7,786 nucleotides of DNA from a virus (lineage: Duplodnaviria; Heunggongvirae; Uroviricota; Caudoviricetes): positions 1 to 7,786 of IMG/VR virus record IMGVR_UViG_638341082_000011; one strand, written 5' to 3'. The notes under the pieces are model-generated. The model had not been told where the DNA came from, made no database searches, and saw only the letters and a list, made by a program, of their open reading frames with translations. Below, in pieces: positions 1 through 7,786 of this stretch. The stretch's first letter is position 1. Every line of letters begins with the position of its first letter. The translations under genes and the position numbers were made by a program.

Positions 1-468
1 ATGCCAGATCAAAAAGAAAGTGAGAACACCAAACTCACTTGTGAAGAACAAAAGGATAATGAACTGGTTTCTCGAGTAATCGAAAATCCAGAGGTCTTAA
101 ACAGGGTTTTGGATAGTCCGCAGGTGCGGGCTATTGTTTGCCAGCATTTTCAGGGGCCTGTTCCGCCACCTTCAATGCTTAAAAAGTATGATCAACTGGT
201 GCCTGGGCTTGCAAATCGACTTGTTGAGTTGACCGAAAAAGAGCAGGCTCATCGCCATAAAACAGTGGCTGATAGCATTGATATTGCCAGAGATGGTCAA
301 ACAAAGGCTTTTTGGTTGGCAATATTGATCATCTTAGCTGCCACTGTCTTTGGCGTCATGGGGGAGACAGTTCTTGCCGGAACTCTCGTTTCAATAGATC
401 TTGTTGCATTGGTTACGGCATTTATTGTTGGAAAACATTATTCTAAGCAGGAACCTGATCAAGATTAG
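1..468 (+). CDS. DUF2335-like small membrane protein; probable host-flank gene, possibly 5'-truncated by the window edge
   Basis: ORF from ATG at 1 to TAG at 466-468. Soluble N-terminal part with PPPSMLKKYDQLVPG...EKEQAHRH segment, then two hydrophobic helices (AFWLAILIILAATVFGVMG and LAGTLVSIDLVALVTAFIVG). Convergent with int and followed by an intrinsic terminator. Family assignment is from memory of the DUF2335 pattern. Confidence 0.6.
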   Translation: MPDQKESENTKLTCEEQKDNELVSRVIENPEVLNRVLDSPQVRAIVCQHFQGPVPPPSMLKKYDQLVPGLANRLVELTEKEQAHRHKTVADSIDIARDGQTKAFWLAILIILAATVFGVMGETVLAGTLVSIDLVALVTAFIVGKHYSKQEPDQD

Positions 469-474
469 TCTCTG

Positions 475-499
475 AACCCCGGTTGATGCCGGGGTTTTT
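475..499 (+). terminator. Rho-independent terminator of the upstream plus-strand gene
   Basis: Perfect stem CCCCGG (477-482) / CCGGGG (489-494) with 6-nt loop TTGATG, followed by TTTTT (495-499). Lies 7 nt after the stop codon. Confidence 0.8.
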
Positions 500-544
500 A
501 CACTAGCAAAGCAATATCAACATTTTTCAGCTGTATTTATTTCG

Positions 545-1663
545 TCAAACAACCAATTTAACCCATTCCTGACCACGAGTATCGTTATAACGATCGGTGG
601 TTGCCTGGACTTTATGTCCCAGTAATGTTTTTGTATCAATACCCTGCGCGCGGTACAGTCGTTCTGACAGGGAGCGTTGTTCATGAAATGTTGGCGGAGT
701 TTTTCCTGCTGGTGGAGTTATCCCAGCCAGATCCCGTGCTTTGGCAAAGTAGTCGCTCAGGTTGTCTTTACTCATCGGCTTTGGTTGTTTCTGGTGCCGA
801 CTATGGATTAGATATGGACTTAATATTCTGTCTCGGCACCCATCAATAACTTCTTTTAACGTTATCCCAATGGCATCACAGCGTAGTGTAAGCGGTAACG
901 CCAGACGCATTCCGGTTTTCCCTTGGGTGATATGCAGGTGTTCGTTCCATACATCTGAAAAACGCATGTGGCAAATGTCATCTCGGCGCTGACCAGTAAC
1001 AATCGCAAGAAGCATTGCGTTACGGATAAAGTGTTTTTCAGGCGTTGCGTTGTAAATTTTTTGCCAGTCTTCCAGGGTGAGCCTGGCTCTGGTTACTTTA
1101 GGGATCGGTTTACGGGTAGCCTCCGGAGGATTCCATCCAGGAGGAACTTCCCCTGCATGCTGTGCTTCTTTATAAATATCAACCCATAATCCACGATTTA
1201 CTCTCGCTGTGCTGACCATGTCTTTATCCAGCCACTCATCCAGTATTAATGCAAAGTCTCTTACTTCCAGTTCTTTCAATGGATGGTTTCCCAGACGGGA
1301 AACCAGGTATGCAGCCATTCGGGCTTTTTCTTTGTGAGTTGTAGTTGCAATATCCCCATTTTTCAGTCGCGTGTCCTGTATTTTCAGATATCGATCAACC
1401 CATGCCTTTAATCTGATACCCCGACGTTTTGTTGCTGACGGACTTTCATCAATTTTGCGCATGAAATATTCAGCTTCTGCTGCAGCTATTCGCTGATTGG
1501 CTGTGGAAGCGATTTTTTCTGCTTTGCCTTTGTCTGTTCCGAGACCGTGAAATTTTCCAGTCACAGGGTTTTTATACTGGTAGTAAACCCTGCCAGTTCT
1601 GCGATCAAACTTTTCGTAAAGACCGGTTACGTCAGTGCTGTTTTTTCGTGGCCTCGGTGACAT
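545..1663 (-). CDS. int: Tyrosine site-specific integrase, lambda Int family
   Basis: 372-aa ORF with ATG at 1663 preceded by AAGGAG. C-terminal catalytic region aligns by eye to lambda Int (TGQR..D...M.FSD, QGKTG, PPTFHEQRSLSERLY, LLGHK, RGQEW). Start overlaps the 3' end of xis as in lambda. Confidence 0.95.
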   Translation of the reverse strand: MSPRPRKNSTDVTGLYEKFDRRTGRVYYQYKNPVTGKFHGLGTDKGKAEKIASTANQRIAAAEAEYFMRKIDESPSATKRRGIRLKAWVDRYLKIQDTRLKNGDIATTTHKEKARMAAYLVSRLGNHPLKELEVRDFALILDEWLDKDMVSTARVNRGLWVDIYKEAQHAGEVPPGWNPPEATRKPIPKVTRARLTLEDWQKIYNATPEKHFIRNAMLLAIVTGQRRDDICHMRFSDVWNEHLHITQGKTGMRLALPLTLRCDAIGITLKEVIDGCRDRILSPYLIHSRHQKQPKPMSKDNLSDYFAKARDLAGITPPAGKTPPTFHEQRSLSERLYRAQGIDTKTLLGHKVQATTDRYNDTRGQEWVKLVV

Positions 1664-1901
1664 GAGTTAAAATCTCCTTCAGTGCATCATCATCGCCAGT
1701 ATGAATTTCCGGCGCAATTCCCGTTTCACCAGGTCCAACAAATACTGCCCGGCGATCTATCAGCCAACGCCCACGAATTTTTTGTGGTCTTGGAACGATG
1801 TATCCTAGTTTTCCGTATTTCACCAGGGTAGTGTTTGTTATTGGGAGACTGAACCGTTTTGGTTTCCACTCATCGAGCGTTATCAGGTACTGTTCGCTCA
1901 T
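1632..1901 (-). CDS. xis: Excisionase (Xis-like, 89 aa)
   Basis: ATG at 1901 with GGAG 8 nt upstream; the GTG at 1910 used by the ORF track is less likely. N-terminus YLITLDEW resembles lambda Xis YLTLQEW. Overlaps the int start by 32 nt. Confidence 0.8.
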   Translation of the reverse strand: MSEQYLITLDEWKPKRFSLPITNTTLVKYGKLGYIVPRPQKIRGRWLIDRRAVFVGPGETGIAPEIHTGDDDALKEILTHVTEATKKQH

Positions 1902-1962
1902 GGCTATCACTCCGGAACGCGCCAGTTGCAGAATACCAACGACAACTGGCGACGGTTGAACA

Positions 1963-4434
1963 TTAAAAATCAGCCTGATTCGGAATCAGTTTTTGCCAGA
2001 TAGCTGAAACGTATTTTGCCTGGTAACGGGCGTCATCAAGTGCATTATGGCGCTCACCTTCGAATGGAATAGCCGTTCTGGCATCGAAGTCTATGGCTTT
2101 TCCCAGCTCAACGATTGTGCGTACATCGCGATCGTTGTAGTAACGCCACGGGCAGGGGATCCCCTGCCGTTCGTATGAACGGCGCAAAATCGTGTTGTCG
2201 AAGTTGGCTCCATTTCCCCAGACCTGAACAAAAAATTCACCGGAGTTTTCGTCGATAAATTCCCGCAATTGTAACAGTGCATCATCTAACGGGATTTCAT
2301 CGGTCATAATGGCAGATTGCGCTTCGCGTGATTGCTTAAGCCACCATTTAATGGTGTCCCGATCAATGACTCCGCCAGCAGTTTCCAGATCGATAGTCTT
2401 ACTAAATTCCGGTCCCATATCTCCGGTTTGCGGATCGAAAAATATTGCACCTATTGAGATAATCGGGGCATCAGGATTTTTTCCCATGGTTTCAAGGTCG
2501 ATCATTAGATGGTCACACGTCCTGCTGGCGGATGTGATTTCGTGATGACTGTTCACCTTAATTGAGTGATCTGCCGTCTCGCCAGTTTCATTATCGCTAT
2601 TGTGATGCTGATTGCCGCCAGTGTTCTTCTTGTTTGGATGTTCAGCGCCTTCCATTTCCTCCGGATCATCTTCCTGAACTTCAACCTGATACTCTTCATC
2701 GAATGTTTCCTGGTATGTTGCGTCGCCCATCACCGCGCCACAATCAGGGCAGTTGCCGCCGCCGGTCTGACCGCAGGCGGTGCAGATCTTTTCCGGTTCC
2801 TGTTGCACTACTGGTTCAGGTTGTTTCGTTTCTGGCTCGTTTTGTAACGCATTTGGGCTGTTTTGTTCCGCTTTCTGGCCGTTCTGTTCCGTTTCTTGCT
2901 GGTTCTGGTTCACAGTATCGCGGGTCTGGATCCCCTTAACCCATTTCGGATCATTCGGGTCGCTAATCCCTTCAATAAATTCACCACGTGATGCAGCAAG
3001 CAACTTATCGGCGTCAGGCTGGCTGATATTGGCTGCCTGCATAATTTTGTTTACTTCGTCAGCGGTAACTTTTACCGGTTCTGGCTGTGCGGTCGTGTCA
3101 GATGCACCAGTATTTTGTTGTGAACCTGAGTATGTACTGTTTTTGCGGGCGAAATATTCTTCTTTCGTGATTTCAGTAGCCCCGGCAGCCAGTGCCTTAT
3201 CCAGACCAGAAAGTTTGTTTGCGCGACCGTATTTTTCGCCATCCTTGTCGGTGAAGAGGAAGTAGAACGGCCCCTCACGCTCTACAGATGGTTCGACTTC
3301 CACTTTGCATTCGGTTTTTTCGTTGTCCGGGATTGCCGTTTCCACTGCATCAGTTTCTGGTACTGGCGACGAGAGAGTATCAGTTGCGATCTGATTTCTT
3401 CCTTCATCTTCAAACACGCCCTTTGTAGTCAGGTATTCAGTAATGTATTTGTTCAGTGCCACAGGGTCTTTGTGAATGTCGATCGGACGCTCGCGGACAA
3501 GGCCAAAAATAGTCTGGCGGTCGTAGCGAAGGGCATCAGGCTGTTTGCGCATTGATGCTGAGATACGCTTCCAGTCTTCGCGGTCGTTGTTGATAACTTC
3601 ATTTTTTGCCCAGCGATGGATGCTGCCGTCAATGTTTCCGGCATCAATGTCACCAGGCCACAGAGCGTAGGCCAGTTCATCATCCAGTGTTTTCCATGTC
3701 TGCTTATATTCGCGACGAATGACTGCAGTGACAGGGGGGATATTTTCTGCTGAGTTTTCAGTGTGCTGTCGGTTGACTCTGGCGCGGGCGAGATCAACAG
3801 CAGACGTGTATTTTCCGGTTTCCTTGCGTTCACCTTCGCGACGTTTTTTCCAGATGCGCATCTCTGCCTGAATTTCGGGCCATTTAGCTCCAGGCTTACA
3901 TTTATGCTTAACCCACCCGATGGCATGCAGCTTAAGTTCCGGATACATGGCGTTAACTTCTGGCATTTTCATCAACGCTTCAACGATATGTCCGTCGAAT
4001 GTTGCCATGTCTTCCTGCAACAGTTCCTGTGCACTAATCACCATATCAACGGTGATGTTTTCACATGTGTCGAACTTAACCATGACAGCGTTCTGCACTT
4101 CAGGGGCCAGCTTGTCAAAAGTGACGTTCATCGGATCTGATTCAGTCTCAACCGGGACAAAGGAAGCTGACTCCTCATCCCAGCGGTTTTCCTGCATATA
4201 TTCAGCATCCCAGGAATCGAGGGCAGGGCGGGGTATACCGGGTTTATCCTCGCAAACAAGAAATTTATAAGCGCAGTCCTGAGCAGCCGGATATTGCTCC
4301 AGGAATTGCCAGGTAAATTTGGCACGGGCGCGGCGTTCGTCGCCAGCTTCAATGGCAGTGGCTACAGCGACTGCACCTTCTTCCTTTATTGCCTGTTCGT
4401 CCGGAATAGCGGCGCAAATAAAGACTTTACTCAT
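1963..4434 (-). CDS. Large multidomain prophage protein (823 aa) with C-terminal DnaQ-like DEDDh 3'-5' exonuclease domain, central Cys4 zinc-ribbon motif and acidic/Q-rich linkers; N-terminal about 550 aa of unrecognised function
   Basis: ATG at 4434 with GAGG upstream, TAA at 1963-1965. Last about 183 aa (nt about 1966-2514) carry three exonuclease motifs: Exo I IDLETMG, Exo II GNGANFDNTIL, Exo III HNALDDARYQAKY. CTACGQTGGGNCPDCG (nt about 2734-2784) is a CxxC-x9-CxxC zinc ribbon. Segment KLLAASRGEFIEGISDPNDPKWVKGIQTRD resembles, from memory only, the central part of RecE/exodeoxyribonuclease VIII-annotated prophage proteins. Sits where K-12 Qin has the ydfE pseudogene. Confidence 0.85.
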   Translation of the reverse strand: MSKVFICAAIPDEQAIKEEGAVAVATAIEAGDERRARAKFTWQFLEQYPAAQDCAYKFLVCEDKPGIPRPALDSWDAEYMQENRWDEESASFVPVETESDPMNVTFDKLAPEVQNAVMVKFDTCENITVDMVISAQELLQEDMATFDGHIVEALMKMPEVNAMYPELKLHAIGWVKHKCKPGAKWPEIQAEMRIWKKRREGERKETGKYTSAVDLARARVNRQHTENSAENIPPVTAVIRREYKQTWKTLDDELAYALWPGDIDAGNIDGSIHRWAKNEVINNDREDWKRISASMRKQPDALRYDRQTIFGLVRERPIDIHKDPVALNKYITEYLTTKGVFEDEGRNQIATDTLSSPVPETDAVETAIPDNEKTECKVEVEPSVEREGPFYFLFTDKDGEKYGRANKLSGLDKALAAGATEITKEEYFARKNSTYSGSQQNTGASDTTAQPEPVKVTADEVNKIMQAANISQPDADKLLAASRGEFIEGISDPNDPKWVKGIQTRDTVNQNQQETEQNGQKAEQNSPNALQNEPETKQPEPVVQQEPEKICTACGQTGGGNCPDCGAVMGDATYQETFDEEYQVEVQEDDPEEMEGAEHPNKKNTGGNQHHNSDNETGETADHSIKVNSHHEITSASRTCDHLMIDLETMGKNPDAPIISIGAIFFDPQTGDMGPEFSKTIDLETAGGVIDRDTIKWWLKQSREAQSAIMTDEIPLDDALLQLREFIDENSGEFFVQVWGNGANFDNTILRRSYERQGIPCPWRYYNDRDVRTIVELGKAIDFDARTAIPFEGERHNALDDARYQAKYVSAIWQKLIPNQADF

Positions 4435-4514
4435 GTTGTTTTAACCTCATTACAGATTTAAGGGTGAACAAATCCCTGCCATTGCTGGCATATAAAAATG
4501 AAACCGGATATTAA

Positions 4515-4718
4515 TTACGGTGCTGTTTTAAGTCCTGCCGGGATTTCGTTATTATCCATGTGAATAACTTTATCGACCGGATAACAGTTACCGGGAATTT
4601 TCTGTTCCACTGCGGCAACCATGCATTCTTTCATTGAGCCGTATACGCCAGTAACCATGTCAACCGGTTCACCGGAAACAAGAAAAACCGTCAGAACAAG
4701 TGCAAATGTAGTATTCAT
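4515..4718 (-). CDS. ydfD: YdfD-like DUF1482 small protein with N-terminal hydrophobic segment (67 aa); Qin YdfD is reported as a lysis protein
   Basis: ATG at 4718 with AGGA 8 nt upstream. Start overlaps the dicB-like stop in an ATGA junction (4715-4718). Translation MNTTFALVLTVFLVSGEP...QKIPGNCYPVDKVIH...IPAGL matches my recollection of Qin YdfD. Synteny dicB then ydfD is as in K-12. Confidence 0.8.
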   Translation of the reverse strand: MNTTFALVLTVFLVSGEPVDMVTGVYGSMKECMVAAVEQKIPGNCYPVDKVIHMDNNEIPAGLKTAP

Positions 4719-4903
4719 TGCCAGCATCCTTTTTGCATCAGGCGTAAACGGGCCAGCATTGAAACAATGCATATTTTATCCAATAGCTCCCGTTCTTGTT
4801 TCCTCTTGTTAATGGCATCTTCAGTAAATACTGGGTTACTGATAGTGACACCAATTTCAAAACAACCTTCAGACGTATTAACGTTTGGTAATAACGTTTT
4901 CAT
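4715..4903 (-). CDS. dicB: DicB-like cell division inhibitor (62 aa)
   Basis: ATG at 4903 with GAGGG 7 nt upstream; the longer GTG-initiated frame from 5008 has no RBS. Translation MKTLLPNVNTSEGCFEIGVTISNPVFTEDAINKRKQERELL.KICIVSMLARLRLM.KGC.Q is near-identical to E. coli K-12 DicB as I recall it. Sits downstream of a DicF-like element. Confidence 0.85.
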   Translation of the reverse strand: MKTLLPNVNTSEGCFEIGVTISNPVFTEDAINKRKQERELLDKICIVSMLARLRLMQKGCWQ

Positions 4904-5072
4904 TATCGCACCCTCAACAATGAATTTTGTGATGCGGCGCCTGGTGCCTCCAGGTGACGTTAACCAGTTAACAATTAACGCCGGATACAGAGAACCCATC
5001 CATAACACTGTTTTTGGTTTTAACTGTTCCGCGTGCGCTCAGCCGCATTCACCGCATCACAAAATTCACTTT

Positions 5073-5130
5073 AAAAAGGGCAGCAGAGCAGTCACGGAGT
5101 AAAACTGATACCACCAAACGTCACCAGAAA
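5073..5130 (-). ncRNA. dicF: DicF-like small regulatory RNA with 3' intrinsic terminator
   Basis: Minus strand reads TTTCTGGTGACGTTTGGTGGTATCAGTTTTACTCCGTGACTGCTCTGCTGCCCTTTTT. This matches the recalled K-12 DicF except GGCGG->GGTGG and CCGCC->CTGCC, both keeping the stem as G-U wobble pairs. Inner stem CAGU/ACUG present, T-run at 5073-5077. Lies about 170 nt upstream of dicB. Ends are approximate. Confidence 0.7.
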
Positions 5131-5465
5131 ATTGATAACAGAGGGCGTTGCAGCGGGGTTGTCACTTAAGCGTATGGTCAACCTGGCAACCCGGTGTCTC
5201 AATGGGGGAGGAATAACCCCGCCATACTTACCGCCGCGCCATTTCGCGGAGTGCCACAACCGGAAGCGCACGGTCGAATTAAATTTAACGACACCGTACA
5301 GTGAGACGAACTTCGCCGTGCGCTTTCGCGTTATGCCCTGGCTTTTCAGGGATATATCCTTTCAGTAAACTGTCAGTACCGGATTCTTATCCGTGTCCGG
5401 CGCACGACCACACGTGGCAGCGTGTTGGTCTCCATTTTTAACCCAGAACCTCAATGGAGGATAAA

Positions 5466-5675
5466 ATGCCAAACAAAAAAAGAAATCCGCTTATTGAAAA
5501 ACAGATTGAATGCCTGGTAAATCAACTCAGGCAATCAGGGTTATTAAAAACTCATTCAGAGTTGAGGCTCACAGAATCAGCATTCGATGATAAATTAAAT
5601 AATGTCCTTTATAATGGCATTATTGATTTTAATCGTTCAGTTGGTCGCCTCGGCCCTGCTGGTGTTTCCTTATAA
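5466..5675 (+). CDS. Hypothetical 69-aa protein, AT-rich, convergent with and abutting the 216-aa gene
   Basis: ATG at 5466 preceded by GGAGG (5456-5460) with 5-nt spacer; the upstream in-frame ATG at 5454 lies inside the RBS. Translation MPNKKRNPLIEKQIECLVNQLRQSGLL... has no recognised family. Visibly more AT-rich than its surroundings. Stop TAA (5673-5675) directly abuts the minus-strand stop (5676-5678). May not be a real gene. Confidence 0.4.
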   Translation: MPNKKRNPLIEKQIECLVNQLRQSGLLKTHSELRLTESAFDDKLNNVLYNGIIDFNRSVGRLGPAGVSL

Positions 5676-6326
5676 TTACCAGTCAATCCAGAGCGGACCG
5701 TGTTCAGCGTAAATATAACTGTACACATCCAGATTATATTTGTGGTCTGTTAAGAACAGGCCGCAAATACATGCCGAAGCTTCCAGGGCAGCGGCTCTGT
5801 TACTGAATAACCATGTGGCAACATTCCAGCGTTTTTCTGCATCCCAGTCTTTCTCAAGGCCTGATACCATGAAGAAACCGTTAGTGTTGCCATCAAATAA
5901 TTCTGTTTCCAGATTTTTAAGCAATGCCTGATGGACTCTTGCCAGGTATTCCGCCGGAATTTCGCCACGAATTCTGATGAGATTGTCATAAACAAACATG
6001 TTCCCCGCATATGGCGATTTTTCTTTCTTGTTTTTTAAACCAGCATCATGAGCAAACTGATCAATTTCTTCTTCCGTTGGTTTCGTATTGATGTTTTGCG
6101 CTGTCGTTTCTGCAATTTTATTTGCCACACTATCTGAGTCGTGTTTATTTACAGACGCACAGAAATACAATCCGGTAAACGCATCGCGCACATTACGAGC
6201 CATATTATCAGTGTCTTTTTTCGTTACCGATTCCAATGCAAGTTCGTTCAGACGATGACGAAGTGTGTGTGCTGCAATCTCCTGGATTGAAGTAGGTAAA
6301 TCTTTAAATTCCATCGTCAACCTCAT
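5676..6326 (-). CDS. Hypothetical protein (216 aa, or 212 aa from the internal start), function unknown; cargo gene in the early-left operon
   Basis: Long intact ORF. ATG at 6326 overlaps the ydfA-like stop by 1 nt (TGATG); an alternative ATG at 6314 (MEFKD...) has GAGG 6 nt upstream. No recognisable catalytic or family motif by inspection. Occupies the position held by ydfB/ydfC in K-12 Qin. Confidence 0.75.
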   Translation of the reverse strand: MRLTMEFKDLPTSIQEIAAHTLRHRLNELALESVTKKDTDNMARNVRDAFTGLYFCASVNKHDSDSVANKIAETTAQNINTKPTEEEIDQFAHDAGLKNKKEKSPYAGNMFVYDNLIRIRGEIPAEYLARVHQALLKNLETELFDGNTNGFFMVSGLEKDWDAEKRWNVATWLFSNRAAALEASACICGLFLTDHKYNLDVYSYIYAEHGPLWIDW

Positions 6327-6478
6327 CAGTCAGAGTTTCTTGCTAACCAGCGATGCGCGCCAGCTTCGGTTTTAAACGTTTTGCTTTTGGTATACGTCAT
6401 CGCGGTGAACGTGCCGTCCTGGTTGGGAAACACGCCGTACACCAGAGATTCGTTGTTACCAAGATCGATAGTATCCAT
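6326..6478 (-). CDS. ydfA: YdfA-like small protein (50 aa)
   Basis: ATG at 6478 with GAGG 5 nt upstream. The 85-aa frame in the ORF track starts at a TTG (6583) that is the -35 of the proposed promoter. Size and position right after the dicA-like repressor match K-12 YdfA (51 aa); the sequence match is from memory. Confidence 0.6.
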   Translation of the reverse strand: MDTIDLGNNESLVYGVFPNQDGTFTAMTYTKSKTFKTEAGAHRWLARNSD

Positions 6479-6554
6479 GTTGACCTCATTTCCCCTTAAC
6501 GCCGGGTAGCGGAACTGTTTGCTGAGAACACCGTGCGGTGTCTTGATGGGTGGT

Positions 6555-6583
6555 AATTTAGTTTTCTCATGACTGTTGGTCAA
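6555..6583 (-). promoter_or_regulatory. Candidate leftward early promoter (pL-like) for the ydfA/dicB operon
   Basis: On the minus strand: -35 TTGACC (6583->6578), 17-bp spacer, -10 TAAATT (6560->6555). An operator copy overlaps the spacer and -10. Predicted by eye only. Confidence 0.45.
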
Positions 6584-6607
6584 GTGCTTTTAATGAGAAA
6601 ACTCAAT
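6556..6607. promoter_or_regulatory. Left operator region: two inverted copies of the ATGAGAAAACT(C/A)AAT motif
   Basis: AATGAGAAAACTCAAT at 6592-6607 on the plus strand and ATGAGAAAACTAAAT on the minus strand over 6556-6570, separated by 21 bp. Same motif as the palindrome at 7125-7140. Confidence 0.6.
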
Positions 6608-6612
6608 ATTTA

Positions 6613-6651
6613 ATGCAAAATAAAGCCAATACATTGAAATGTAAGGCTTTA
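6613..6651 (-). terminator. Candidate intrinsic terminator downstream of the repressor gene
   Basis: On the minus strand: AAAGCCTTACATT-TC-AATGTATTGGCTTT imperfect hairpin followed by ATTTTG. Lies between the repressor stop (6668) and the left operators. U-tract is short and the stem is AT-rich, so strength is uncertain. Confidence 0.4.
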
Positions 6652-6667
6652 AAATTTGTGAAGGGGA

Positions 6668-7075
6668 TTACTGATGTTTGTTACGTTTGCGAGCTTCTAG
6701 TAGCTCGGTGAATAGGCGATTAAAATTCTCAACGCGGGCACGGAGTTCGCTGATTTGTGCTTGCTGCTCTGATTTTGGAAGTGCGCGATACAATCGCAAC
6801 ATCTCCAACTCATCTTCCGATAAGTCTAAGGCGCTGTTGAGTGCAACTGGTGGATCTGGTGTTTTATCCTCGTCACCAAACAGTATCCAAGTTGGTGAAC
6901 ATTGCAATACCTCAGCCAGGCGATGCAAATTTTGCCCACGCGGGGCTGTATGGTCGCTTTCCCATAGTGAAATTGATGAGCCAGATACGCCAGCGGCTTT
7001 GCTTAAATCGTTTTGACTTAAACCAACCTGTTTGCGTCTTTCTCTAATTCGTTGACCTAAAGTTTTCTCGTTCAT
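6668..7075 (-). CDS. dicA: DicA-like HTH (XRE-family) prophage repressor, 135 aa
   Basis: ATG at 7075, TAA at 6668-6670. N-terminal HTH (LGQRIRERRKQVGLSQNDLSKAAGVSGSSISLWE). Segment LQCSPTWILFGDEDK and overall length match my recollection of K-12 DicA. Divergent from a Cro-like gene with operators on both sides. Confidence 0.9.
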   Translation of the reverse strand: MNEKTLGQRIRERRKQVGLSQNDLSKAAGVSGSSISLWESDHTAPRGQNLHRLAEVLQCSPTWILFGDEDKTPDPPVALNSALDLSEDELEMLRLYRALPKSEQQAQISELRARVENFNRLFTELLEARKRNKHQ

Positions 7076-7096
7076 ATTTAGATATCTTAATAACCC

Positions 7097-7126
7097 TTGA
7101 CTTGAGATTCCTTGAGTGATTACTAT
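7097..7126 (+). promoter_or_regulatory. Candidate rightward promoter (pR-like) for the dicC-like gene
   Basis: -35 TTGACT (7097-7102), 18-bp spacer, -10 TACTAT (7121-7126). The -10 overlaps the operator palindrome. The spacer contains two CTTGAG half-site repeats at 7101-7106 and 7111-7116. Confidence 0.5.
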
Positions 7127-7140
7127 TGAGAAAACTCAAT
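7125..7140. promoter_or_regulatory. Right operator: palindrome ATTGAG-AAAA-CTCAAT
   Basis: Perfect 6-bp inverted arms with a 4-bp spacer, overlapping the -10 and start region of the rightward promoter. An inverted partial copy GAGAAAACT is on the minus strand at 7061-7069, spanning repressor codons 3-5. Confidence 0.65.
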
Positions 7141-7152
7141 TTTGGAGGGGTG

Positions 7153-7380
7153 ATGTTTAAATCAGACGTAATTAATTTTTATGGGACGAAAGCCAAAGTA
7201 GCGAAAGCTGCTGGTGTTGATCCATCTGCTGTTTCTCAATGGGGGGAACTGGTTCCTGAAGGTCGCGCGATGCGCCTGCAAGAGGCATCTGGCGGGGAGC
7301 TTCAGTATGATCCCAAAGTTTATGACGAATATCGTAAGACGAAGCGGGCGGGGCGGTTGAACAATGAAAATCACCCCTGA
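7153..7380 (+). CDS. dicC: DicC/YdaS-like Cro-type HTH regulator (75 aa)
   Basis: ATG at 7153 preceded by GGAGGGG (7144-7150); the TTG at 7126 lies inside the operator and is unlikely. HTH segment GTKAKVAKAAGVDPSAVSQW. Divergent from the repressor. Confidence 0.85.
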   Translation: MFKSDVINFYGTKAKVAKAAGVDPSAVSQWGELVPEGRAMRLQEASGGELQYDPKVYDEYRKTKRAGRLNNENHP

Positions 7381-7786
7381 ACAGGTTTGTGAGGCTCTGG
7401 ATGCCTGGGTGTGCCGACCAGGAATGACACAGGAGCAGGCGACGATATTAATCACGGAAGCATTCTGGGCTCTGAAAGAACGCCCGAACATCGATGTTCA
7501 ACGCGTCACGTTTAATGATGGCGAGGTTGATCAACGGGCGCTGGGCGTTAACCGGGTGAAGATATTCGAACGCTGGAAAGCTATCGACACCAGGGATAAG
7601 CGGAAAAAATTCACGGCGCTGATTCCGGCAATTATGGAGGCTATCCGGATTAATGATTTCAGGTTGTATCGTGAAATTAGTGACGGAAAAAGCATCACGT
7701 ACATGATCGCCGGGTTAAACAAAGAATATGGCGATGTGGTGGAGTCCGGGCTGCTTTTTGCAGATCCAGCTGTAGTGGATCGGAAA
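7364..7786 (+). CDS. YdaT-like protein (cII-position gene), 3'-truncated by the window edge
   Basis: ATG at 7364 overlaps the dicC-like 3' end by 17 nt in another frame; the frame is open to the window end (141 codons). Not in the ORF track because no stop is reached. Translation MKITPEQVCEALDAWVCRPG...RVKIFERWKAIDT...ALIPAIMEA resembles YdaT-family proteins from memory. Synteny repressor, cro-like, ydaT-like matches Rac racR-ydaS-ydaT. Confidence 0.6.
   Translation, partial: MKITPEQVCEALDAWVCRPGMTQEQATILITEAFWALKERPNIDVQRVTFNDGEVDQRALGVNRVKIFERWKAIDTRDKRKKFTALIPAIMEAIRINDFRLYREISDGKSITYMIAGLNKEYGDVVESGLLFADPAVVDRK

Follow-up and report, generated by a model that had tools for sequence, protein, structure and literature searches.

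In the immunity region of the Qin prophage of Escherichia coli K-12, the operator Oc overlaps the -10 hexamer of the dicC promoter, the start of which was mapped by 5'RACE; DicA binds it in vivo, changes of a single base are enough to inactivate it, and in the in vivo assay DicA bound only Oc, not Om or Oa (PMC3441716). Binding of DicC to K-12 operators has been shown as well (PMC11430063), a Reg-Seq study found no active dicA promoter in this strain (PMC7567609), and Rem is the Qin antirepressor (PMC10448788). The P22 repressor acts as a dimer on 18-bp sites, the central 4 bp of which are uncontacted (PMC4267663). The Salmonella Gifsy-1, -2 and -3 repressors (GfoR, GtgR, GfhR) are short (~136 aa), non-cleavable members of the same family that are inactivated by small antirepressors, are dimers on elution and bind right-operator fragments in EMSA (PMC3121763).

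The DNA analysed here (7,786 nucleotides, positions 1 to 7,786 of the IMG/VR virus record IMGVR_UViG_638341082_000011; referred to as the window) can be assigned with good confidence, the whole of the mechanism proposed below included, to a lambdoid E. coli prophage of the DicA/DicC kind (Qin, mEp460), of which it carries the immunity region; the repeated motif GAGAAAACT very probably marks the repressor and Cro binding sites of its lysogeny switch. The genes of the region are as follows:

5078..5129, minus strand: DicF sRNA of the leftward operon (RF00039, 66.9 bits)
6326..6478, minus strand: ydfA, first gene of the leftward operon (DUF1391 match)
6668..7075, minus strand: DicA-like repressor gene, 135 aa (HTH_3, E = 1.2e-16; 56% identical to K-12 DicA)
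7153..7380, plus strand: Cro/DicC-like gene, 75 aa, P22_Cro family (PF14549, E = 1.1e-17)

The gene order, with ydfA-...-DicF-DicB running leftward, a 135-aa repressor and a divergent gene of the P22_Cro type, is the same as in K-12 Qin (for dicB, an annotation exists in the AST85 locus, which is 99.9% identical), and the two loci do not differ in their -35 hexamers or in the ydfA leader. The identity of the repressor with K-12 DicA extends across 128 aa, and its N-terminal domain is homologous to that of P22 C2 (E = 2e-15), the closest solved homologue of the DNA-binding domain; in contrast to P22 C2, however, the protein comprises only 135 aa, for which a Pfam search retrieved HTH families only and no Peptidase_S24, and its short, helical C-terminal part contains no RecA-cleavage site. 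Prophage induction is therefore expected to proceed through an antirepressor; no antirepressor gene was found in the 7.8-kb window, and a rem-like gene is annotated as 'rem' at 36287-36538 in mEp460, a phage of the same immunity type. The Cro/DicC-like protein, encoded divergently from the repressor, is 72% identical to K-12 DicC, with an identical C-terminal stretch of 44 aa and a diverged HTH. Of the DicA/DicC type, the short HTH repressor without S24 domain, the P22_Cro partner, the ydfA...DicF...DicB operon and the inverted-repeat operators (by sequence and position) were all found. Located next to potC, the prophage does not look cryptic but complete, as the functional phage mEp460 is.

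Exact matches to GAGAAAACT occur four times in the window (0.07 expected from 200 shuffles, none of which contained four), at 6560-6568 (minus strand), 6595-6603 (plus), 7061-7069 (minus) and 7128-7136 (plus), all of them inside 580 bp surrounding the DicA-like repressor gene. Three of the four copies are embedded in 16-bp pseudo-palindromes with the core TGAG-N4-CTCA/CTAA; the 16-mer ATTGAGAAAACTCAAT recurs accordingly at 7125-7140 (0 mismatches), 6592-6607 (one mismatch) and 6556-6571 on the minus strand (three mismatches), against 0.11 expected. A position weight matrix (PWM) built from diverged relatives only placed the sites designated OR1, OL2 and OL1 at ranks 1-3 in the window and an OR3-like site at rank 4. 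Every sequence quoted in the first-pass annotation was found where it had been placed, with two refinements: the 'palindrome' at 7125-7140 is symmetric in its arms (ATTGAG/CTCAAT), not in its AAAA centre, and the inverted copy at the leftward promoter is real, the full site extending to 6571 instead of ending at 6570. Arranged by position, the regulatory elements are:

6555..6583, minus strand: predicted PL, equivalent of dicBp, TTGACC-17-TAAATT (promoter scan; -35 conserved with K-12)
6556..6571: OL1-equivalent operator, on the minus strand CATGAG-AAAA-CTAAAT (20.5 bits, rank 3; conserved in relatives)
6592..6607: OL2-equivalent operator AATGAG-AAAA-CTCAAT (21.9 bits, rank 2; conserved in relatives)
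6617..6651, minus strand: terminator-like hairpin with U-run (-12.3 kcal/mol, z = -4.0; conserved in relatives)
7057..7072, minus strand: intragenic 9-mer copy (GAGAAAACT at 7061-7069, repressor codons 3-5, E-K-T; 9.1 bits)
7076..7091: OR3-like operator ATTTAG-ATAT-CTTAAT (PWM 14.1 bits, rank 4; conserved)
7097..7126, plus strand: predicted PR, equivalent of dicCp, TTGACT-18-TACTAT (promoter scan)
7101..7116: OR2-like degenerate element CTTGAG-ATTC-CTTGAG (9.1 bits; weak candidate)
7125..7140: OR1-equivalent operator ATTGAG-AAAA-CTCAAT (position of K-12 Oc; PWM 24.7 bits, rank 1)

Both promoters are consensus predictions of the promoter scan (two found versus 1.5 expected in shuffles): PR with a -35 hexamer TTGACT at 7097-7102 and a -10 hexamer TACTAT at 7121-7126 (spacing 18), PL with TTGACC at 6583-6578 and TAAATT at 6560-6555 (spacing 17). 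The geometry of PR is the same as that of the K-12 dicC promoter; OR1, which aligns with K-12 Oc (TTGTTAGTCATAACTAACAA), reaches from the last two base pairs of the PR -10 across the predicted start, in agreement with the overlap already noticed in the first-pass annotation, and the inverted-repeat operator of K-12 likewise begins at the last 2 bp of the -10 of the Cro promoter. On the leftward side, OL1 overlaps the spacer and the -10 of PL, its CTAAAT half doubling as the -10 TAAATT, and OL2 lies 8 bp upstream of the -35; the two sites thus bracket the PL -35, which bears out the claim that they flank the leftward promoter. The K-12 dicB promoter also carries two Oc-like sites, 35-36 bp apart, flanking the same TTGACC hexamer. 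The OL1-OL2 spacing amounts to 35-37 bp (~3.4 turns), in which an in-phase arrangement for cooperative binding is not obvious. A third operator upstream of OL2 (6611-6626) was rejected (negative PWM score, not conserved). The terminator-like hairpin directly follows the repressor stop codon and would insulate PL from transcription of the repressor gene. When folded as a single sequence, the PL leader had no significant structure (z = 0.31); compensatory changes were observed in one hairpin of this leader.

The OR3-like site had been missed in the first-pass annotation and is the best-conserved additional site. It forms part of an 18-bp near-palindrome (7075-7092) that abuts the repressor ATG and covers the -10-like hexamer TAAGAT; a third element abutting the repressor ATG is also present in K-12. 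With 0.11 extra alleles per column (p = 8e-4) the site is strongly conserved, the distances OR1-OR3 (49 bp) and OR3-ATG (8 bp) are invariant across 189 loci, and it is kept in type-B relatives as well. Alternatively, because it overlaps the conserved TAAGAT hexamer, it may have been kept as a promoter or translation-start signal of the repressor gene. The repressor start codon is not preceded by a Shine-Dalgarno sequence and has a -10-like hexamer 8 nt upstream, which suggests a leaderless repressor mRNA; the lambda cI mRNA from PRM is leaderless. P22 C2 acts on six operators, the arm of which reads ATTTAAG/CTTAAAT, and we take (T)ATTTAG-ATAT-CTTAAT(A) of the OR3-like site to resemble it.

Between OR1 and OR3, the OR2-like element has a single good half-site (7101-7106) that abuts the PR -35, and its PWM score is at background level. 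The two CTTGAG hexamers (7101-7106 and 7111-7116) are positioned as first described and form a direct repeat 10 bp apart; as independent half-sites they are not supported, their conservation equalling that of neighbouring non-coding DNA (p = 0.21), and the second one is wrongly oriented for a symmetric dimer and reads CTTGCG or CTTGCA in relatives. Both together may be regarded as a weak candidate for a degenerate middle operator. The centres of the three right-operator elements (7132.5, 7108.5 and 7083.5) lie 24 and 25 bp apart, OR1 and OR3 having good support, the middle site being degenerate and its conservation not significant. Lambda OR/OL has a layout that the window may share, with divergent PR/PRM, three sites 24-25 bp apart and operators on both sides of the repressor gene; in contrast to lambda, with which the sequences are not homologous, the PL of the window has only two clear sites and the middle OR site is degenerate. 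Since only Oc, not Om or Oa, bound DicA in K-12, it may be that neither the OR2-like nor the OR3-like element binds repressor by itself.

The three strong sites are conserved and specific. In relatives (L086/L298, L087, L299, L300, L339), whose repressors are 75-80% identical and contain the same S-x-S-x-ISL helix, TGAG-N4-CT[C/A]A is present at all three positions, and the spacers between these sites vary. A phylogenetic footprint of 24-47 distinct E. coli sequences revealed 0.25 extra alleles per column in the operator cores (0.17 in the 12-bp core of OR1) versus 0.84 in adjacent non-coding columns (Mann-Whitney p = 8e-4). Throughout the mEp460 genome (45,865 bp), the 12-bp core TGAGAAAACTMA occurs without mismatch only three times, always at PL and PR, and four of the five 9-mer copies lie within the immunity region; the first-pass annotation had made its reading depend on such a positional bias, which was indeed found, the core of mEp460 being confined to the PL/PR operators. 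A scan of viral contigs with the 14-mer TTGAGAAAACTCAA returned mostly unrelated metagenome contigs, the 14-mer being too short to be informative on positional bias. Other types (K-12, Citrobacter, Yersinia, Rosenbergiella and others) each possess their own repeated motif at the same positions, and the motif types co-vary with the recognition helices of both the repressor and Cro. A literature search retrieved neither the core sequence in a phage context nor a description of the operator; the 7 papers containing the 12-mer core were unrelated (human or fish primers and the like). Positional homology with K-12 Oc, conservation, footprint and specificity in mEp460 thus uphold operator-type sites on both early promoters flanking the repressor gene.

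A more elaborate arrangement had been suggested at first, in which the intragenic copy and the CTTGAG hexamers are functional, the repressor is autoregulated through codons 3-5 and a DNA loop connects PL and PR as part of a cooperative system of four or more sites. We consider it unlikely. The fourth, inverted partial copy is indeed an exact 9-mer located 68 bp from OR1 and invariant inside the E. coli clade, two PWM hits of ~9 bits within 70 bp of OR1 exceed local expectation, and a site at +7 to +15 of the repressor mRNA, provided that this mRNA is leaderless, could act as a block on the repressor's own promoter. However, the copy differs from the 12-bp core by three mismatches, lacks a second half-site and is missing from every one of the five diverged type-A lineages in which OR1, OL1, OL2 and OR3 are kept (absent in L298, L299, L300, L339, L086 and L087); autoregulation through these codons therefore loses its footing. 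The 9-mer is accounted for by the codons GAG-AAA-ACT, one of 16 synonymous encodings of E-K-T, and the coding region varies so little (2 of 30 columns) that the invariance of the copy carries no weight. As to PWM scores, neither the OR2-like element nor the intragenic copy could be separated from background (hits at 6047, 19 and 1168), and conservation of the CTTGAG hexamers does not exceed that of background. Looping is unsupported as well: the OR1-OL2 distance ranges between 533 and 538 bp among relatives, a difference of roughly half a helical turn, for which reason PL/PR helical phasing was dropped as evidence, and for related repressors, which are dimers, nothing points to tetramers, octamers or other higher-order oligomers. 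The intragenic copy is thus probably not a conserved operator.

That the Cro/DicC-like protein is the main ligand of the sites and the DicA-like repressor acts through other sequences is very unlikely. The ChIP-seq peaks of K-12 DicC on both sides of dicA, with a palindromic motif TT(A/C/T)G...C(G/A/T)AA, would fit such a division, as would the co-variation of the Cro HTH with the operators and the fact that types A and B have the SAVSQW helix of Cro and the OR3-like palindrome in common and differ in OR1. Against it, the positionally homologous Oc of K-12 is bound by DicA in vivo, operators are common to repressor and Cro in lambdoid switches (PMC10448788), the helix of the repressor co-varies with the core motif too, and a second repeated motif at both promoters, besides the operator core, is not present in the window. 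A narrower variant, in which the 7076-7091 palindrome is primarily a Cro (DicC-like) site that enables Cro cross-talk between prophages distinct at the repressor level, is rather unlikely and slightly less so than the looped arrangement; it is conceivable because palindrome and SAVSQW helix are shared with type B (e.g. Citrobacter braakii) at a different OR1 specificity. If true, the Cro of one prophage would be able to stop the synthesis of repressor in another, heteroimmune prophage of the same cell, and in the E. coli clade the extra intragenic half-operator (+7 to +15 of a leaderless repressor mRNA) might contribute additional control.

Finally, although the regions are AT-rich and the immunity region is mosaic, with recombination boundaries within the Cro gene and at the PL leader, the notion that the repeats are non-regulatory (chance AT-rich repeats or leftovers of recombination between immunity cassettes) has next to no probability left and is effectively refuted already by counts that were never reached in shuffles, by sites that are kept while the flanking spacers vary and by a placement relative to the -10/-35 elements identical to that of the validated K-12 operator.

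The preferred reading is a switch operated by repressor and Cro through shared sites. What was observed are the motifs, their placement relative to the predicted promoters, their conservation, their specificity in mEp460 and their co-variation with the HTH helices; that the proteins bind them, with which dimer stoichiometry and relative affinities, and what OR2 and OR3 do is inferred. The 135-aa repressor most likely acts as a dimer on 16-18-bp sites of the consensus xxTGAG ... CT[C/A]Axx, with two contacted arms and a non-contacted 4-bp A-tract centre; P22 operators have the same 7+4+7 geometry of contacted outer arms and an uncontacted, A/T-rich 4-bp centre (PMC4267663). Of the three strong sites (OR1, OL1 and OL2), OR1 would be occupied across the end of the -10 and the start of PR, the promoter for the Cro/DicC-like gene and the replication genes, OL1 across the spacer and the -10 of PL, the promoter for ydfA, DicF and DicB, and OL2 immediately upstream of the PL -35. 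Occupancy would exclude RNA polymerase from both early promoters, and lysogeny would therefore be maintained. The weaker, strongly conserved OR3-like site on the -10-like element of the repressor's own promoter is a likely target of the Cro-like protein, which is expected on the same sites as the repressor, for the shut-off of repressor synthesis, and likely also serves negative autoregulation at high repressor concentration; the degenerate OR2-like element would lie between OR1 and OR3 at lambda-like 24-25 bp spacing. In contrast to lambda, there is no evidence here for octamer-mediated looping or RecA-mediated cleavage.

The motif comparison with the K-12 dicA-dicC and dicB promoter regions, proposed in the first-pass annotation, revealed the same operator layout and a different operator sequence. 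The core of the window is TGAG-AAAA-CTCA (16 bp) in contrast to TTGTTAGT-CATA-ACTAACAA (20 bp) in K-12, where the arms are positioned 1 bp further from the centre; the recognition helix of the repressor is VSGSSISLWE versus ISHVSVSQWE, that of Cro VDPSAVSQW versus IRLASLYSW. Homoimmunity with Qin is thus not indicated, the arms being unlike those of Oc and the repressor helix not identical; since operator sequence and recognition helices of both proteins differ, the prophage and Qin are predicted to be heteroimmune and to belong to different specificity classes. Compared with P22, the contact residues S-N-V-A-I-S-Q are replaced by S-G-S-S-I-S-L (and N46 by R46), and the arm is TGAG in the window versus TAAG in P22. 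By operators and helices, the locus is to be regarded as a heteroimmune member of the known DicA/DicC, P22-C2-like family.

No new regulatory principle is involved, and the finding is sound but ordinary. Its relevance is that the operator specificity TGAG-A4-CTCA is defined by sequence evidence for an immunity group that is very common among E. coli prophages (of 5,426 complete E. coli genomes, 797 contain 80% or more of the 1.1-kb immunity region) and includes the functional phage mEp460; the prophage controls the DicF/DicB cell-division-inhibitor operon. Known operators would permit the prediction of homo- and heteroimmunity among DicA-like prophages and the design of clean reporter and derepression constructs, and the natural pairs of repressor helix and operator arm in the P22-C2 family would constitute a useful panel for specificity studies.

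The 7,786-bp window comprises the left arm of an E. coli lambdoid prophage together with its immunity region; a prophage adjoining potC in strain AST85 is 99.9% identical to it. Its features are as follows:

545-1663, minus strand: integrase gene
Minus strand: genes for excisionase, an 823-aa exonuclease and dicB
5078-5129, minus strand: DicF sRNA gene (Rfam RF00039, 66.9 bits, E = 1.9e-13)
5676-6326, minus strand: 216-aa ORF between ydfA and the DicF/dicB region
6326-6478, minus strand: ydfA
6583-6578 (TTGACC), 17 bp, 6560-6555 (TAAATT), minus strand: leftward promoter PL, predicted by consensus promoter scan
6668-7075, minus strand: repressor gene, 135 aa
7075-7092: 18-bp near-palindrome TATTTAGATATCTTAATA (core 7076-7091, ATTTAG-ATAT-CTTAAT), abutting the repressor ATG
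7097-7102 (TTGACT), 18 bp, 7121-7126 (TACTAT), plus strand: rightward promoter PR, predicted by the same scan
7153-7380, plus strand: Cro-like gene, 75 aa
Plus strand, beyond the Cro-like gene: YdaT-like gene

The 216-aa ORF, "hypothetical" in the AST85 annotation, matches no Pfam family at E <= 0.01 and stands in place of K-12 ydfB/ydfC. Of 5,426 complete E. coli genomes, 797 contain at least 80% of the 1.1-kb immunity region. The closest sequenced phage is mEp460_ev081 (91.6% identity across 1.1 kb); mEp460 has been described as functional and temperate, with dicB, dicF, dicAC and rem homologues (PMC10448788).

All sequences quoted in the first-pass annotation are present where it had placed them. 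The element GAGAAAACT has four exact matches (6560-6568, minus; 6595-6603, plus; 7061-7069, minus; 7128-7136, plus), compared with 0.07 from shuffles, none of 200 shuffles reaching four. The 16-mer ATTGAGAAAACTCAAT is found at 7125-7140 (OR1, no mismatch), 6592-6607 (OL2, one mismatch) and on the minus strand at 6556-6571 (OL1, three mismatches), with 0.11 expected. According to the predicted promoter positions, OR1 overlaps the last two -10 bases and the predicted start point of PR, whereas OL1 overlaps the spacer and -10 of PL and OL2 lies 8 bp upstream of its -35. Coordinates, shuffle counts and promoter scan thus confirm repeated sites at both early promoters, and the DicF gene at 5078-5129 identifies the leftward operon under these operators as dicBF-type.

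In diverged loci whose repressors are 75-80% identical and share the S-x-S-x-ISL recognition helix (Buttiauxella L086 and L087; viral contigs L298, L299, L300 and L339), all three positions keep TGAG-N4-CT[C/A]A amid diverged flanking DNA. A phylogenetic footprint of 24 distinct right-side and 47 distinct left-side E. coli-type sequences gave 0.25 extra alleles per column for the three 12-bp cores versus 0.84 in adjacent non-coding, non-promoter columns (Mann-Whitney p = 8e-4). The outermost 16-mer positions are variable (...CTCAAC at 7135-7140 in most E. coli copies), so that the functional core is TGAG-N4-CTCA. A PWM built, to avoid circularity, only from 12 sites of the four diverged relatives gave the three sites the top three scores in the window (24.7, 21.9 and 20.5 bits). 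Across all 45,865 bp of the mEp460 genome, exact copies of the 12-bp core are limited to these three places, and four of five exact 9-mers fall inside the immunity region; in this one phage genome the motif is therefore not found elsewhere at similar frequency, the core being restricted to the PL and PR sites. The fifth GAGAAAACT copy (38569-38577, 0.42 expected) lies within a Q-antiterminator gene, has no flanking arms and is probably due to chance. In other immunity types (K-12, Citrobacter braakii, Symbiopectobacterium, Yersinia, Rosenbergiella and E. whittamii among them), the matching positions bear a repeated inverted repeat particular to each type, and both proteins have different recognition helices.

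The K-12 Qin prophage provides the experimental reference. DicA is 56% identical to the window repressor and DicC 72% identical to the Cro-like protein; in the latter pair the C-terminal 44 residues are identical and all divergence lies in the helix-turn-helix half. Likewise, the ydfA leader and both -35 hexamers of the two loci are near-identical, whereas divergence falls exactly at the operator positions. The K-12 element Oc (TTGTTAGTCATAACTAACAA) starts on the final two bases of the dicC -10, as does 7125-7140 in the window; the dicC start site was mapped by 5'RACE, and cloned Oc titrates DicA, brings a reporter under DicA-dependent repression and loses its activity upon one A-to-C change (PMC3441716), so that its role as a DicA operator is experimentally supported. 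At the dicB promoter of K-12, the same TTGACC is flanked by a pair of Oc-like sites spaced by 35 bp (36 bp in the window). The two-sided layout is consequently the known DicA/DicC architecture with another operator sequence. Taken with conservation, footprint, PWM ranks, mEp460 specificity and co-variation, this layout shows the core interpretation of the sites as DicA-like repressor operators at both early promoters to be right; the binding itself we infer.

The solved structure most closely related to the DNA-binding domain is that of the P22 C2 N-terminal domain (1adr, 2r1j, 3jxb; E = 2e-15 to 3e-14). As a dimer, P22 repressor occupies rotationally symmetric 18-bp sites, contacts the outer arms only and reads the central four bp indirectly via a B-to-B' transition, with N46 at the mouth of the central minor groove (PMC4267663). 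The 7+4+7 layout recurs in the window sites, whose A4 centre is almost invariant; the recognition helix is S-G-S-S-I-S-L compared with S-N-V-A-I-S-Q in P22, and N46 aligns with Arg (residue 46, about 6938-6940, minus strand). This position is Arg in all repressors of the window's immunity type (type A; TAPRGxNL), whose operators have the invariant A4 centre, and S, T, K or G in other types. We infer that R46 exploits the narrow A-tract groove.

Whereas the first-pass operator set stands for the three strong promoter sites, it left out the palindrome 7076-7091, the fourth-best PWM match (14.1 bits) and best-conserved non-coding element (0.11 extra alleles per column, p = 8e-4). Its arms, ATTTAG and ATTAAG, are one position off the strong-site arm ATTGAG, and in 189 of 189 type-A loci its centre is separated from OR1 by exactly 49 bp and from the ATG by 8 bp. 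The palindrome overlaps the hexamer TAAGAT (7089-7084, minus strand), which precedes the repressor ATG (7075) by 8 nt; every immunity type compared has a TAnnAT hexamer 8-9 nt before this ATG (9 nt for TAGCAT in K-12 and TAGAAT in the Yersinia/Rosenbergiella types), and none of these types has a Shine-Dalgarno sequence ahead of the start codon. This combination points to a repressor mRNA with little or no leader, as in lambda cI, and to the palindrome as a putative OR3 equivalent. The K-12 dicA promoter was never mapped (PMC7567609, PMC3441716). The K-12 element Oa occupies the position of the palindrome, and neither it nor Om bound DicA in an in vivo assay (PMC3441716). The palindrome is also kept in type-B relatives such as Citrobacter braakii, which have another OR1 and the same Cro helix (SAVSQW), so that it may be preferentially a Cro site; Cro-level cross-talk between heteroimmune prophages through this common element seems improbable. 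Promoter and start-codon signals could account for part of its conservation.

The two CTTGAG hexamers, proposed as a half-site pair, form a direct repeat conserved at background level (p = 0.21): only the first (7101-7106) is in half-site orientation, kept as [C/T]TGAG beside the -35 in relatives, while at the second relatives have CTTGCG or CTTGCA, and many E. coli copies CTTGAA. The two are best taken jointly as a candidate degenerate OR2-like 16-mer (7101-7116; 9.1 bits) whose centre is 24 bp away from OR1 and 25 bp away from OR3, a spacing similar to that in lambda. The copy at 7061-7069 within the repressor codons, suggested as an autoregulatory site, is not supported as an operator: it differs from the 12-bp core at three positions and lacks a second half-site, codes for E-K-T (GAG-AAA-ACT), scores 9.1 bits, comparable to several background positions, and is replaced by GAAATGACG, GAGATAACC or GAGATGACG in diverged relatives keeping all other sites; its invariance in E. 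coli is uninformative since only 2 of 30 neighbouring coding columns vary. Looping finds no support, the OR1-OL2 distance being 533 to 538 bp among relatives with no sign of oligomers above dimers; the related Gifsy repressors elute as dimers (PMC3121763).

Directly past the repressor stop codon, a minus-strand hairpin (6617-6651, UAAAGCC...GGCUUUA then UUUU; -12.3 kcal/mol, z = -4.0), kept in relatives and not flagged by a simple terminator scan, is probably the repressor-gene terminator, insulating PL. A small hairpin in the PL leader (6528-6541, minus-strand transcript, ACACCG-UGCG/CACG-CGGUGU), within the highly conserved ydfA leader, has a fully compensated stem in Buttiauxella (AAUCACU-CAGC-AGUGAUU) and could act as a nut/boxB-like or processing element; the leader's fold, computed from a single sequence, did not reach significance. 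In otherwise near-identical prophages, the natural OL2 arm point variant TGAGTTTTATCA (7 loci; L006, L010 and L022 groups) and its OL1 counterpart TGATAAAACT (3 loci; L008 group) could represent operator-down alleles or reflect decay of cryptic copies.

The 135-aa repressor has no S24 peptidase domain in Pfam, so that a Rem/GfoA-type antirepressor would be expected to bring about induction, as has been demonstrated in Qin and the Gifsy phages (PMC10448788, PMC3121763); the mEp460 annotation lists a rem-like putative antirepressor gene at 36287-36538. Mosaic boundaries of the immunity cassette lie in the Cro-like gene (7153-7380) and the ydfA leader (6480-6550), the latter near-identical to K-12 as far as the first operator, and from these alignments immunity specificity appears to be swapped as a block from mid-cro to the leftward promoter. 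No description of the window's operator sequence was found in the literature searched, which makes the specificity assignment new, though unsurprising: the switch belongs to a known family as a heteroimmune member, and the system is not of a new kind.
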